A stretch of 64,000 nucleotides of DNA from Octopus vulgaris (lineage: Eukaryota): assembly GCA_951406725.2 (NCBI GenBank), contig OX597832.1, positions 8,680,001-8,744,000 on the forward strand, read 5' to 3'. The notes beneath the pieces are model-generated. The model did not search any database. It saw only the letters and a program-made list of their open reading frames with translations, and had not been told where the DNA came from. Both the position numbers and the translations under genes were made by a program. Shown one piece after another: positions 11,003 to 49,500 of this stretch. Every line of letters starts with the position of its first letter. The stretch's first letter is position 1.

Positions 11003-11515
11003 ATGCATAGATTGAAGACGCAGGATGAAATATTTGGGCCAGTAAAAGAAACAGAATAAGTGGTCAAGTTGTTTGAAAAAAAAATGATGAGTTTGACTTT
11101 ATCTCGGAGACGTCCACGGATATTAGAGCAAAATGAAAACAACTGCTGATAGGAATAAAATATGATTTGGGTATTTCAAAGAATGCAGATCCAGGAGATC
11201 TGAAATGCCAGGGCAAACATTGTCAAAATACTTGAAATGTATTATGGTAAAAGACACTTAACAGGTAGAAAGTGGTTTCAAACCCAGTTATTTCATGCGT
11301 TGTCATATAGAACTAGATATCGATCTGATTCGTTGTCAGATATCGATCTGATTCTTTATATATCAGTATTGAAGCAACGAGAGGAATATATATATATATA
11401 TATATATATATATATATATATATATATATGTATAAGGGTGAAAAGGAACACACGAGTTGATATATATGAAAAAACAAGTAAAAAATAGAAAATGCTAAAA
11501 TAATTTTATAGTGAA

Positions 11516-11563
11516 CATTTCAGTACCGGTTTCGGTCATTTTGAGACCTTTTCAACTGTAACG
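11516..11563 (-). ncRNA. Type I hammerhead ribozyme-like motif (U3-A8 core), inverted copy
   Basis: Exact reverse complement of 11958-12005. Confidence 0.72.
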
Positions 11564-11957
11564 ATTAAATAATTAAATTTAGAAAAATTAGAAGAAAAGT
11601 TTTTTTAAAAGAATATTTCTATAGTAGTGTTCAGATTTAAGTGGCATTCTGCCTTTCTCTGACTCCCTTGTTTGCACTTGTGTGTTCGAGGTAGTTGTGA
11701 GTTCTTGGTAGGGTAGTAGAGGGAAGGCTGGTGAGGAAAGGGGGGTGGGAGAATCAGGGCACTCCCAGATTCTCCCACCCCCTTTCCTCACCAGCCTTCC
11801 CTCTACTACCCTACCAAGAACTCACAACTACCTCGAACACACAAGTGCAAACAAGGGAGTCAGAGAAAGGCAGAATGCCACTTAAATCTGAACACTACTA
11901 TAGAAATATTCTTTTAAAAAACTTTTCTTCTAATTTTTCTAAATTTAATTATTTAAT

Positions 11958-12005
11958 CGTTACAGTTGAAAAGGTCTCAAAATGACCGAAACCGGTACTG
12001 AAATG
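11958..12005 (+). ncRNA. Type I hammerhead ribozyme-like motif, U3-A8 variant core
   Basis: cgttacag-TTGAAAA-ggtc(tcaaaat)gacc-GAAA-ccgg-TA-ctgaaatg: stem I, stem II, palindromic helix III (ACCGGT) and a GUA cleavage triplet. Confidence 0.75.
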
Positions 12006-12857
12006 TTCACTATAAAATTATTTTAGCATTTTCTATTTTTTACTTGTTTTTTCATATATATATATATATATATATATATATATATGTGTGTGTGTGTGTG
12101 TGTGTATATGTATATATACACATACACACACACACACACATATATATATATATATGTATAGCAAGAAAGCAAGAGACAGAGGGTAGGGAGAGAGAGGGAG
12201 GAGAGAGTCAAAGGATAAGATCCAGAAAAGCTCAATACAGAATATCCGAAATCTTTACGAAGAGCCATATATGTGTGTATTCATATGCTTTAAGTGTCGT
12301 GCTTATATGTACAGAAATATACATACACAGACGTACAAATCATATGAAAATGTAAGGCCGTGCTCCAGCATGGCTGCACTCAAATAACCGAAACATGTAA
12401 AAAGTAAAAGTGTAAAAATACGTGAACGTTGATGCGCGTAAATGAGCGGTATAATATGTTATTCTCTGTATCCATATAGACCTCAATTCGCAAGCTGGAA
12501 ATTAGTAACTATACAAGCTGATTCACACGTACAATTTATACACATATAGGGTCATTTTTTTTTCATGGCAAAGAAGGATGTACAGATGTACAAGGTGCAC
12601 CGAAATTTCAGCAAAGCATATTCACTATAAGTGACAAAACTACGTTATGGCAGGTTACACTTTGCATATAGGACCCGCGATAAGCTTTGAGACGTTTGCT
12701 GCGAGAAACATCTTTATTTCACATAAAATATGATACATATTTATATGGTTTTGTAATCTTTATGCAACACACACACATACTCCCCCACACCCTCTTCTCT
12801 CTTCCTGTCTTTGTCTATATATGTGTGTCTCTGTGTGTATATATGAGTGTGTGCAAA

Positions 12858-13088
12858 GGCGGCGAGCTGGCAGAAACGTTAGCACACCGGGCAAAATGTG
12901 TAGCGTATTTCGTCTGCCGTTACGTTCTGGGTTCAAATTCCGCCGAGGTCGACTTTGCCTTTCATCCTTTCAGGGTCGATAAATTAGGTACCAGTTACAC
13001 ACTGGGGTCGATGTAATCGTTTTAATCCGTTTGTCTGTCCTTGTTTGTCCCCCTCTATGTTTAGCCCCTTGTGGGTAGTAGAGAAATA
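12858..13088 (+). mobile_element. SINE family B, full length
   Basis: Head ggcggcgagctggcagaaacgttagc, B-box GGTTCAAATTCC and core gaggtcgactttgcctttcatcc; multiple copies in the window. Confidence 0.88.
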
Positions 13089-13527
13089 TATATGAGTGTG
13101 TGCATGTGTGGTTGTATGTATGTGCGTGTGACTGTGTGTGCATATAAAACACACAAATACATATATGCAAACACATATTCACACGCAGATATGCATTAAA
13201 CTTGTAATGAATTGTGAATTACGGGTATACAATTGCATTATTTACTCTAGCAAATAGTATTATATACGTAAATTAAATAGTGCTTAGGAAATTACCAATT
13301 TAAGTGTTCTACCATAAACGATTACAATAGCATTACAAATACGATAATGACTATTAAGCGTATACGTGAAATATGCTTTGAATCATGTAGAGAGAATGAC
13401 AAAAGTGCATGACAAATATTGACATTAGCCGCTGATGTCTATGATTAAAGAAATCTATTAACAGATTCAATAAATTTATGTTAATATATACTCAAAATGT
13501 TCCGCACTAAGACGGTTATGGAACATT

Positions 13528-13740
13528 GGTTTCAAATTTTAGCAGAAGGCCAACAATTTCAAGTGTGATGGAAGTTAAGTCGAATAAATCGACCTTCGTA
13601 ATCAACTGGTGCTTAATATATCGAATCCGAAAAGATGAATGACAAAGTCATCCTCTGCGGTATTTGAACTCAGAGCGTAAAGACAGACGAAATGACTATA
13701 ATCATTACTTCCGGCCTGAAAGTGACTCTGCAAGCTCGCA
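13528..13740 (-). mobile_element. Degenerate SINE family B copy
   Basis: gaaaagatgaatgacaaagtc...atttgaactcagagcgt matches the reverse complement of the 12858 copy. Confidence 0.7.
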
Positions 13741-47498: not shown

Positions 47499-47880
47499 CT
47501 ATTTAAAAGCCAGATAAGTGTAACGCCGCCAATGGGGGCATCGAAAAGCCGACTGTAAAAGCCCGTTTACCATCCGGCCTCTGGCAAACAAAATATGGAA
47601 GAGTTCGGAGACACAAAGGTTGCACTGCCTTCTGCCCCTATCAAATGGGAGGGCCGCCGACAAAATTGACCATTCCAGCCTGTAGCTTAAGTTCGTATCC
47701 TTCAGTCGCCATATTAGCTTACTGAGTCCCGTGGTCTGGCGCTTGTTCATGTCCCGAAAAGTTGCGTAATGGTTGGAGACTCGCAAAGACAATCTTGAGG
47801 ATGAGGCCCCTACATAAGTGAAGACATCTGAGTCCGTGTAAACCTTGCATTGGTAGACGGCGTTTTTGATCTTGGAGTTC
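47499..47880 (-). pseudogene. GIY-YIG endonuclease domain of a Penelope-like element (C-terminal fragment, open frame)
   Basis: AVYQCKV...TYVGAS..LSLRVSNH..F....TGLSKLIWRLK...LEWSIL...CNLCVSE...MVN...CPH. The N-terminal ~33 aa of ORF 47499-48008 come from the inverted arm and are not genuine. Confidence 0.88.
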
Positions 47881-48225
47881 GCCGACGTGAATCTTATTCT
47901 GCTAGGATTAAAAATGTTTTCTACCCCTACGCCAACACACACATATATAGAACAGTATACACACACACACGTCTCTAAGTAGATTTTTTCTCGCCCCTTA
48001 TAAAACATCCAATATTCCTTAAATAGTCAGAACTTTATTCTCGGTCACAAAGAACATCTACACACCCTCACCCACATGATTGACCGATGCCTGACCCGTT
48101 AAATTCTTCAGCCACCGGTTCTCAACATACACTGATAAACAGTTTCGCCATGGGCTCTTAGGAGCCTAGTTCGATTTGTTTTTGCTCCGCCTCTGTTCTG
48201 TTTTTGTTTTTTCCAACGGATTTCC

Positions 48226-48319
48226 TATTTTCTTCCTGAAGAGAAAGACACAATATGGTCCCATTATTCAATCGGATTTTGGTAAATTGTGCCTTTCGAA
48301 ACACGTGTAGAATGAAATA
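48226..48319 (+). ncRNA. Type I hammerhead ribozyme, canonical core
   Basis: tattttcttc-CTGAAGA-gaaagacacaat...attgtgcctttc-GAAA-cacgtg-TA-gaatgaaata. Stem I pairs 9/10, stem II 11/12, helix III is the palindrome ACACGTGT, and predicted cleavage is after A48309. Confidence 0.85.
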
Positions 48320-48417
48320 AAACGATTTCTGTTCAATCTGCGTTCAGCTCCATTTCTTCAATTCACCAATTTATATATATATATATATATATATATATAT
48401 ATATATATATACACATA

Positions 48418-48573
48418 CGCGACGGCTTTCTATCAGTTTCCGTCTCCCAAATCCACTTACAAGGCTTTATTCAGCCCGAGGTTATAGTAGAAGACACTTG
48501 CCCATAGTGTCACCCTATGTGACTCAGCCCAGAACCACGTGAAAGCAAGCTTCTTACCACACATCCATTCCTG
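48418..48573 (-). mobile_element. SINE family A 5' half
   Basis: tcagtttccgtctcccaaatccact...agaagacacttgccca...gcaagcttcttaccacac. Confidence 0.8.
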
Positions 48574-48581
48574 TTTATATA

Positions 48582-49500
48582 TTAAGGGCACAATACATGT
48601 ATTAAAGCGTAACTAATCGTTTCATATGTTGAGAAAACTGAATTCTCAGGAGCAACCCACATATCACAAGGAAGTAAGAAACTTGAATAATGAAAGAAAA
48701 TCTGAGAAAGTAGCATATAGAAAACGTAGAGAGTAAACAACGGAAAACGAAAAACGGAAAACAAAAATGCACAAATTAAAAACTAACATAGGAAAAAGAT
48801 TCTTGTCTCTCCTAGACACACACTTTCCAGCTTCTTACAGATACTGGAAATATTTGATCACTGTTCTATGAAGTAATCATATAGCTGCTGCCCTAATATG
48901 AAGAATATCATTACACGTGGTCAACACCAAAAGCCTAAACCCAGTCGTAACTCTCGTGACCCAGGATCCTTTCTACTTGACCAATGATGTGTGATTAAAT
49001 CTATCGTATGTGAGGCAGAAGTTAATGCAAGCGTAAATAATAATACAACTGATAATAAGACTTATATTGGATCATGTGCAGGTAATATTTTGAAATCTAG
49101 ATTAGAAATTTTCAGTAGCTGCATACATATGTATAAATATATTTTAAAGTATTGGAAAATCTCTTTTATTCCTAACTGACATAATATCTTTCTAGCCTTA
49201 TCATTTAAGGTCTAACGAGGATAACTATTTTACCTTTTTGTCTTATATTTTTTTATACTTTAGTTTTTGTGTTTTTGTTTTCCGTTTTCCGCTTTCTGTT
49301 GTTTACACGCAGCGTTTTCTATAATTAAAATTTTTAGTTCGTTATGATATGCGACTTGCGCCTGAAGATTATGTTTGAGTTTTCGAAACATGTGAAACTA
49401 TTAGTAACGCTTTAATAAATGTATTGTGCCCTTTAAATAAATAATAAGTAACTCTCACGGGATGGAGTACTATTTTTGCTGAATTTTTATCGCGGAACAG
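48582..49500 (+). mobile_element. Older Penelope-like fragment with diverged inverted pLTR arms
   Basis: Arms ~48582-48790 and ~49255-49437. The interior translates SYSCCPNMKNII (~48877) and SIVCEAEV...KTYIGSC...LKSRL (GIY-YIG). A tail at 49438-49500 leads into TA-rich repeat. Confidence 0.82.
49358..49410 (+). ncRNA. Type I hammerhead-like motif
   Basis: gcgc-CTGAAGA-ttatgttt...gaaacatgt-GAAA-ctattag-TA-acgc; a degenerate inverted copy lies at ~48607-48653. Confidence 0.55.

Follow-up and report, generated by a model that had tools for sequence, protein, structure and literature searches.

The hairpins in a 64,000-nt stretch of the Octopus vulgaris genome (contig OX597832.1; here, the window) are best read as head-to-head pairs of 5'-truncated element 3' ends in (TA)n, likely formed when both TA strands are cut and the element RNA is copied from both cut ends. 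We give this reading a probability of about 0.7. Each family has two fixed 3' termini, one with a tail and one without, and 120 of 129 two-armed insertions from six families join one tailed to one tail-less end, which bears out the predicted tail asymmetry; one is two-tailed, none is without a tail, and eight are unclear.

The insertion architecture itself is already published, and the hairpins are mostly known biology. Penelope-like elements (PLEs) have been described as having truncated copies in inverted orientation, tails on one side, and a (TA)n target (PMC8557442, PMC3846280, PMC11167929), and accounts of EN+ PLE insertions list hammerheads in the pLTRs, partial tandems, a truncated copy inverted at the 5' end, a (TA)n preference, and a tail that is often confined to one end (PMC8557442, PMC3846280). 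Set against those accounts, octopus tails measure 30 to 175 nt rather than 30 to 40 nt, and the one-tail pattern is counted here. Added here are the near-constant presence of a single tailed end per pair and the finding that either half may be the longer, which suggests two-sided copying rather than simple fold-back.

Layout and families of the eight loci

Inverted arms were found at all eight listed loci (Table 1), and every locus is the 3' end of a multi-copy family. The layout proposed as common to all of them (tail, arm, inverted arm) holds at seven, but at 26.0 kb a single family end is present as four alternating pieces, with TA inside the structure. Arms of different loci are unrelated, as had been claimed, sharing only AT-rich matches of 15 to 18 nt. 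The description "near-spacerless" fits only the loci at 11.4, 22.5, and 27.7 kb; spacers are ~45 to 70 nt at 27.0 and 28.0 kb and 620 to 680 nt at 46.6 and 48.6 kb, with the arms overlapping by 1 nt at the 46.6-kb junction. The reported TA flanks also need qualification, as the tail-less side carries only a degenerate TA stretch at 22.5 and 48.6 kb.

Table 1. Hairpin loci and associated features, in positions of the window; inverted-arm positions are given with arm identity where available
Locus	Positions	Strand	Feature	Arms
11.4 kb	11386..11429	.	(TA)n target, tailed side of insertion	11468/12053, 98%
11.4 kb	11430..11759	-	Family B (Neptune-type PLE) tailed arm: ~30-nt tail and 3' UTR, unit positions 1-329; U3-A8 hammerhead ~11518-11555	
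11.4 kb	11753..12061	+	Family B tail-less inverted arm, unit positions 340-31; hammerhead from 11966; then (TA)n 12054-12085	
22.5 kb	22487..22771	+	Family C insertion (495-bp non-coding hammerhead tandem unit): tail-less inverted arm 22487 to ~22575; tailed arm and ~100-nt tail to 22771; (TA)n 22772-22826	22487/22667, 90%
	25452..25600	-	PLE-type end, additional to the original list, in TA tract of the 26.0-28.0 kb loci; U3-A8 hammerhead at 25529	
26.0 kb	26023..26306	.	Family I (Hydra-type pLTR end): four alternating pieces, TA runs at palindrome centres; tail-less terminus ~26302-26306 against (TA)n	26023/26262
27.0 kb	27036..27601	-	Family D (hammerhead with long stem II), TA on both sides: ~175-nt tail; tailed arm to 27427; inverted arm 27423-27601	27217/27598, 91%
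27.7 kb	27637..27748	-	Family H mini-insertion: ~65-nt tail, ~21-25-nt arms	27707/27748
28.0 kb	27970..28247	-	Family E (503-bp non-coding hammerhead tandem unit), TA on both sides: ~100-nt tail; tailed arm to 28189; inverted arm 28179-28247	28073/28243, 83%
37.7 kb	37686..38600	-	Tail-less end 79% like family D and, probably of the same element, Neptune-type endonuclease remnant 700-900 nt further	
46.6 kb	46614..47910	-	Family A (young Hydra-type PLE) tailed arm: 157-nt tail, pLTR with hammerhead 46832-46905	46771/48370, 99%
46.6 kb	47502-47909	-	Family A C-terminal GIY-YIG region in tailed arm; (TA)n outside tail 46566-46612	
46.6 kb	47910..48370	+	Family A tail-less inverted arm, unit positions 618-159; hammerhead at 48236; (TA)n outside 48372-48411	
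48.6 kb	48575..49500	+	Family G (old Hydra-type PLE) insertion: tail-less inverted arm from 48575; endonuclease remnant with an internal deletion ~48850-49170; degenerate hammerhead (49362) in the tailed arm; ~55-nt tail to 49500	48575/49444, 77%

Three loci are Hydra-type (46.6, 48.6, and 26.0 kb), one is Neptune-type (11.4 kb), and the other four (22.5, 27.0, 27.7, and 28.0 kb) belong to hammerhead-bearing families in which no ORF was found. The expected GIY-YIG-region remnants lie inside the 46.6- and 48.6-kb loops and at 38382-38600, the last being 53% identical to the family B protein. A terminus common to one locus and the GIY-YIG fragment near 37688 had also been proposed, and the 27.0- and 37.7-kb ends do agree at 79% over ~120 nt; the 37.7-kb end and the remnant probably belong to a single element.

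Family A has a 3625-bp tandem unit with an 899-aa RT and GIY-YIG ORF, and its endonuclease has at least 150 near-identical matches. A Pfam search of the protein gave nothing above cut-off; it has 425 homologues, and its RT and GIY-YIG motifs were located by alignment. It resembles the Hydra clade as described in PMC8557442 in its DKT and RWK-type (here RWL) motifs, its lack of CCHH, the CxxC and CxH at its C-terminus, its canonical hammerhead, and its (TA)n targeting. It differs from relatives in its unit length and protein size (899 aa versus about 710 aa) and in the loss of most linker cysteines: the CxCX5C linker is kept in 7/7 aligned relatives and broken in family A, which retains one of the conserved cysteines. 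Hydra-1_Obim (2507 bp, (TA)n target; PMC8557442 supplement) was set beside it by description only. Families G and I are related to Hydra clade PLEs, being linked to Hydra-type ORFs by tblastn with family A, and family I has a tandem junction at one locus (L221).

Family B has a tandem unit of 4419 to 4433 bp (~4.42 kb), with an ORF1 and a 784-aa RT/GIY-YIG ORF for which Pfam gives RVT_1 above cut-off (E 3.5e-8) and GIY-YIG under it (21.1 versus 22.6 bits). Its placement with the Neptune PLEs, from which no notable difference was seen, is by motifs read by eye from the translation (DKG, Cx4CxxC linker, CCHH-type endonuclease, upstream ORF1) together with (TA)n targeting, against clade features given in PMC8557442.

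The prediction of many PLE lineages stands as to many unrelated families, but for four of the eight no ORF was found, and two of these are retrozyme-like, ~500 bp long, and not autonomous PLEs. The longest stop-free frames in the consensus sequences of C, D, and E are 70, 113, and 67 aa, with no RT plus GIY-YIG ORF (the D consensus covers 1044 nt only), and tblastn with family A found no ORF match for family H. Families C and E resemble metazoan non-LTR retrozymes (PMC7229834, bioRxiv 10.64898/2026.07.22.740005) in their non-coding tandem units, each with a predicted type I hammerhead, but differ in their PLE-type geometry of tail and inverted arm. An inverted 5'-truncated copy with a one-sided tail, a PLE feature, is present here as well.

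Putative type I hammerheads, all on one common strand, occur in families A, B, C, D, E, G, H, and I; the motifs with paired stems were detected by script in A, B, E, G, H, and I and read from the consensus in C and D. The Rfam matches listed (150 of 224) include no hammerhead, only sub-threshold miRNA matches caused by hairpins and microsatellites. The claim that several loci carry hammerheads narrows to cores in three of the eight (both arms at 11.4 and 46.6 kb; degenerate at 48.6 kb). The copies at 22.5, 27.0, and 28.0 kb end short of their own family's core, and no core was found in the 26.0- and 27.7-kb copies, although longer family H copies have a minimal hammerhead. Truncation at the hammerhead cleavage site was considered and rejected: despite the 27.0-kb tailed arm stopping 2 nt before it, ends are not enriched within 5 nt of the site (observed versus expected: A, 1 versus 1.6; B, 0 versus 0.1; C, 5 versus 2.3, p 0.07; D, 3 versus 2.3; E, 0 versus 1.7).

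TA adjacency and abundance

Of nine inverted repeats in the window, five come within 10 nt of a (TA)4 or longer run at an outer end. A grid sample of the genome (400 kb) gave 26 of 99, against a null of about 2.7%, which agrees with both the predicted TA-flank enrichment and the genome-scale abundance; two of the 26 sit at one locus, and the sample scales to TA-adjacent inverted repeats on the order of 10^5 genome-wide. Only seven of the 26 could be tied to the studied families or to the hammerhead motif, which alone also matched 4 of 44 non-adjacent repeats; a PLE origin of the others would be an extension from these. In family A, (TA)4 or longer adjoins 50/53 tailed and 44/45 tail-less ends. 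Start-site contexts are TA-rich, but the elements themselves are AT-rich, and we make no case for primer-template pairing at these sites.

One tail per pair and the origin of the second arm

Among family A loci selected by endonuclease, 42 of 58 are tailed/tail-less pairs, 1 is unclear, and 15 are single or incomplete; family B gives 8, 1, and 6 of 15 loci. The remaining samples are best-scoring matches to tail- or end-containing queries, and those of A by tail (20 pairs, 1 unclear, 8 single or incomplete of 29 loci), C (19/20 tailed/tail-less), D (13/14), and E (11/15, with the one two-tailed pair) bear only on the absence of two-tailed pairs; family I gives 7/7. Single-armed insertions of either end type exist, and no hidden micro second arm was seen at 21 such loci. 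Because they exist, double priming is not obligatory.

The original prediction called these fold-back insertions, and self-priming has been proposed from junction palindromes (PMC3846280): one cDNA would snap back through microhomology and serve as its own template up to the proximal site, which would produce the inverted arm. Several features agree with this. Arm ends lie within 15 nt of each other in 11/20 short family A pairs (permutation mean 2.2, p 0.0002), the arms overlap by 7 nt at the 11.4-kb turn, and the 22.5-kb arm ends fall within ~10 to 15 nt. Junctions show microhomology (37 clean junctions: 0 nt in 6, 1 in 8, 2 in 9, 3 in 11, and 4 in 3, versus a null of 55, 28, 11, 4, and 1%; 12 further junctions have fillers). 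Partner arms are also alike, with divergence within versus between pairs of 0.16 versus 0.67% and 0.78 versus 1.46% in A, 2.5 versus 3.6% in C, 2.3 versus 4.4% in D, and 2.4 versus 4.3% in E.

However, among 42 long family A pairs, the tailed arm reaches further in 20 and the tail-less arm in 22. In those 22 the reach of the tail-less arm means that the tailed arm cannot have served as hairpin template, and simple fold-back is excluded for roughly half of the long insertions. Arm ends lie within 25 nt in none of the 42, and near symmetry (19/115 over all families) is likewise absent from long A (0/42), B (0/10), and E (0/11). At two loci (L045 and L283) the tailed piece, at 70 and 87 nt, does not even span the tail, and the other arm contains no matching sequence that could have been its template. 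Even where the ends are near-symmetric, the tail-less arm leads in 8 of the 11 pairs and the tailed arm in only 1; snap-back of the tailed strand thus misfits most of them, and snap-back of the tail-less strand would still require a second, separately primed tailed cDNA. Fold-back is therefore unlikely as the general origin, and snap-back may contribute among short near-symmetric copies.

Separate insertions into one TA repeat in opposite orientations, or later trimming of long inverted repeats, would be a much poorer account. One tract can be hit repeatedly, as that at 25.4-28.4 kb holds at least five unrelated insertions, and the 26.0-kb locus looks secondarily rearranged. But paired arms adjoin with no TA between them, belong to the same family, and are closer to each other than to unrelated copies, and the one-tail rule (120 versus 1 versus 0) contradicts such a general origin; we regard it as improbable.

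An assembly artefact from fold-back chimeric reads is hardly credible: arms in the window differ by 1 to 23%, spacers vary from copy to copy, outer ends recur at family-fixed positions in other contigs, and the partner arm often has sequence absent from the first, while in the reads themselves the turn and the empty site are both out of view (zero depth on unique flanks in two raw-read runs; contigs of two others broken at TA repeats). TA-targeting MITEs or foldback DNA transposons, which would share the inverted ends and TA flanks, are just as implausible given the variable 5' truncation, one-sided tails, tandem units, and hammerheads, being refuted for A, B, G, and I by continuity with RT/GIY-YIG ORFs and opposed in C, D, E, and H by the tandem or truncation pattern.

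A probable two-sided priming mechanism

The counts, together with the junction microhomology and the likeness of partner arms, favour coordinated priming from both target strands. The GIY-YIG endonuclease would nick both strands of (TA)n; one strand would be primed at the distal start site, producing the tail, and the other at the proximal site, probably coordinated by a dimer on one RNA or on RNAs of one donor. Both cDNAs would stop early and be joined via 1 to 4 nt of microhomology or a small filler, leaving palindromes as by-products. Non-coding C and E, and probably D and H too, may borrow PLE machinery in trans. Two independently truncated cDNAs do not predict the near-symmetric short pairs, so this class needs a shared template end, a collision of two polymerases, or a snap-back step. 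Likeness of partner arms could alternatively reflect a single active donor, or gene conversion at a later time, instead of one RNA.

L1 twin priming yields inverted parts without overlap. The octopus arms, in contrast, both begin at the 3' end and duplicate it. In vitro, the anole PLE PAc cuts both strands and extends each of them, initiating at two neighbouring RNA sites between which the tail lies, with a dimer predicted (PMC11167929); the available text of that paper does not treat the pairing of two start sites in inverted insertions. A stronger proposal, which we consider evenly balanced, is that PLE integration is obligately asymmetric twin priming, in which an RT-endonuclease dimer on one RNA with two fixed start sites yields exactly one tail per two-armed insertion. 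This rule would be common to Hydra-type, Neptune-type, and non-coding hammerhead families and kept in a young Hydra family without the zinc-finger linker credited with TA targeting.

We found no account that counts tail pairing or names this layout twin priming in the literature within reach, from which subscription papers and older Penelope reviews were mostly missing, and PMC8557442 states the origin of tandem or inverted PLE ends and the tail as an open question. With an in vitro PLE system now described (PMC11167929), the counts translate into exact predictions: each pair should have one tail, either arm may be the longer, microhomology should be short, and template variants should be shared. 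Family A, a young family with many intact ORFs, is usable material. For the octopus genome, inverted repeats seeded at TA tracts in such numbers are a possible source of dsRNA and fragile sites.

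Inverted repeats in the window and across the genome

All eight inverted-repeat loci of the original prediction (11.4, 22.5, 26.0, 27.0, 27.7, 28.0, 46.6, and 48.6 kb) were found by self-comparison of the window (33% G+C), in which very abundant microsatellites had been masked. The layout that they were said to share, with a tail, an arm, and an inverted arm, applies to seven loci, each with a unique one-sided tail, but the 26.0-kb locus is built of four pieces of a single family end that alternate, with TA runs in the centers. Likewise, "near-spacerless" describes the hairpin at 11.4 kb, whose arms overlap by 7 nt, but not those at 46.6 and 48.6 kb, where spacers reach 620 to 680 nt.

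As a genome control, inverted repeats (arms of ≥18 nt, span of ≤4 kb) were counted in 40 stretches, each 10 kb long and set by fixed round coordinates, and called TA adjacent when no more than 10 nt separated an outer end from a run of at least (TA)4. The enrichment proposed for TA flanks is evident, with 26/99 repeats being TA adjacent versus 2.7% for the same spans placed randomly. Because the control stretches also hold many such repeats (5/9 in the window), the window is typical of the genome rather than a special locus.

Further features of the window and one family A reading frame from elsewhere in the genome
Position	Feature	Remark
2262-3409; 39562-39837	LINE-like coding remnants, by eye	Unrelated to hairpins; no Pfam match for 2265-2921
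4574-4890	Minisatellite, 9-nt period	Internal inversion
25395-28430	Single long TA-rich tract	Nesting hotspot, at least five unrelated PLE-type insertions
25452-26022	End-like fragment in this tract	U3-A8 hammerhead
26380-26530	End-like fragment in this tract	
31689-31762; 32878-32973; 46218-46348	Three older family H copies	Hammerheads decayed; one tail-less end at TA, one tailed
40197-40751	264-bp direct duplication	90%
49879-50443	Hydra-type RT remnant, decayed	32-35% identical to A protein; directly past TA tract (49.5-49.7 kb)
63115-63153	39-nt near-perfect palindrome	Not at TA
L033:4163-6859	Family A ORF	Most CxCX5C linker cysteines gone, low-complexity insertions gained

Families behind the arms

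Searches of the octopus genome (2.8 Gb, 227 contigs) traced every arm to a dispersed family, of which it is a fixed end. Their assignment to many Penelope-like element (PLE) families stands for A, B, G, and I (the loci at 46.6, 11.4, 48.6, and 26.0 kb), which are tied to Hydra- or Neptune-type ORFs, but is not matched by an ORF for C, D, E, or H (22.5, 27.0, 28.0, and 27.7 kb). Families C and E are tandem units of 495 and 503 bp, each with a type I hammerhead and no ORF; D and H also carry hammerheads, and no ORF was found for either. Family B has a 4.42-kb unit containing an upstream ORF and a 784-amino-acid RT/GIY-YIG ORF with Neptune-type motifs, while G, whose copies are 72 to 87% alike, and I are linked to Hydra-type ORFs.

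The tandem unit of family A (3,625 bp, with an ORF of 899 amino acids) has at least 150 genomic matches at 97 to 100% identity. Its motifs agree with the description of the Hydra clade except for the CxCX5C linker, which is broken, and the protein is longer through low-complexity insertions. That 94/98 ends of this young, abundant, Hydra-type family lie at (TA)n sits badly with the proposal that TA targeting depends on the linker. Long stem II insertions (about 45 to 110 nt between core halves) occur in hammerheads of the family D consensus and of the A and I pLTRs, and short-stem descriptors would miss them.

Two termini and a single tail

Wherever a family's tail is visible, it constitutes the sense 3' end, with the hammerhead upstream on the sense strand. 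Two kinds of 3' terminus occur in each family, one tailed and one tail-less at a fixed inner position (about 150 to 158 in A, 31 in B, 98 in C, 171 to 174 in D, and 98 to 107 in E). Both lie at (TA)n in family A (tailed, 50/53; tail-less, 44/45).

Fifty-eight family A loci were chosen by endonuclease match rather than by tail: 40 were taken in list order, and long ORFs or paired matches contributed to the choice of the other 18. Fifteen were single armed or ran off the stretch; of the 43 that were two armed and wholly in view, 42 combined a tailed with a tail-less end, with 1 unclear case. The same combination was found in 20/21 tail-selected A pairs and in 8/9 pairs of B, 19/20 of C, 13/14 of D, 11/15 of E (one being two-tailed), and 7/7 of I. 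In total, the anticipated tail asymmetry is seen in 120 mixed pairs, against 1 two-tailed, 0 tail-less at both sides, and 8 unclear; tail-selected samples can exclude two-tailed pairs only, whereas pairs of either like-end class could have shown up in the A endonuclease and B body samples. Single-armed insertions, tailed or tail-less, also exist.

Synthesis and joining of the arms

The further-reaching arm in family A pairs was tailed in 20 cases and tail-less in 22, and in two loci (L045 and L283) the tailed arm is shorter than the tail itself. A tailed arm shorter than its partner, or than the tail, cannot have been the partner's template, so fold-back, as proposed, is wrong as a general mechanism; since the partner also lacks tail sequence, an RNA template is needed for both arms. 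Were the start site chosen independently for each arm, half of the pairs should have like ends, but no such pair was seen among the 42 classified A pairs. The simplest account is that both target strands would be cut, priming would be coordinated at the two start sites, and the cDNA arms would then be joined through microhomology. We infer that both primings are coordinated on one RNA.

Among 49 mapped junctions, 12 had fillers and 37 were clean, with 0, 1, 2, 3, and 4 nt of microhomology at 6, 8, 9, 11, and 3, respectively (null, 55, 28, 11, 4, and 1%). Partner arms differ by about one quarter to two thirds of the divergence between arms of different insertions, and arm ends did not accumulate at hammerhead cleavage sites. 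Four A loci (L300, L299, L048, and L311) have additional short template-switch pieces at their junctions; in L300, position 2097 marks both the end of the long arm and the restart of two short inverted pieces, resembling a template end.

Near-symmetric short pairs and the single-armed insertions count against coordinated two-site priming. Arm ends lie ≤15 nt apart in 11/20 short A pairs (permutation P = 0.0002), with the tail-less arm ahead by 3 to 15 nt in 8/11, and in 19/115 pairs pooled over families versus 6.4 expected; the window hairpins at 11.4 and 22.5 kb belong to this class, which was absent from the pairs of B, E, and long A. Such pairs would be explained by a shared template end, by colliding polymerases, or by a tail-less cDNA that snaps back and is captured by a short tailed one.

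Two-strand cutting with two-site priming fits in vitro results for an anole PLE, for which passages of PMC11167929 report cleavage and extension of both strands, two adjacent RNA start sites that delimit the tail, and a predicted dimer. Portions of other sources describe inverted 5'-truncated copies, frequently tailed at one end only, with a (TA)n preference (PMC8557442); palindromes at junctions, with self-priming proposed (PMC3846280); hammerheads of minimal and U3-A8 type, some in pairs on opposite strands, 100 to 700 bp apart (PMC4209133); and retrozymes as non-autonomous PLE derivatives (bioRxiv 10.64898/2026.07.22.740005; PMC7229834). Recently active Penelope families of an octopus are listed in passages of PMC13282606, none of which concerns hairpins. 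The hairpins are a real, genome-wide PLE insertion architecture that has already been described, to which the one-tail rule, put into numbers, is a modest, testable addition.
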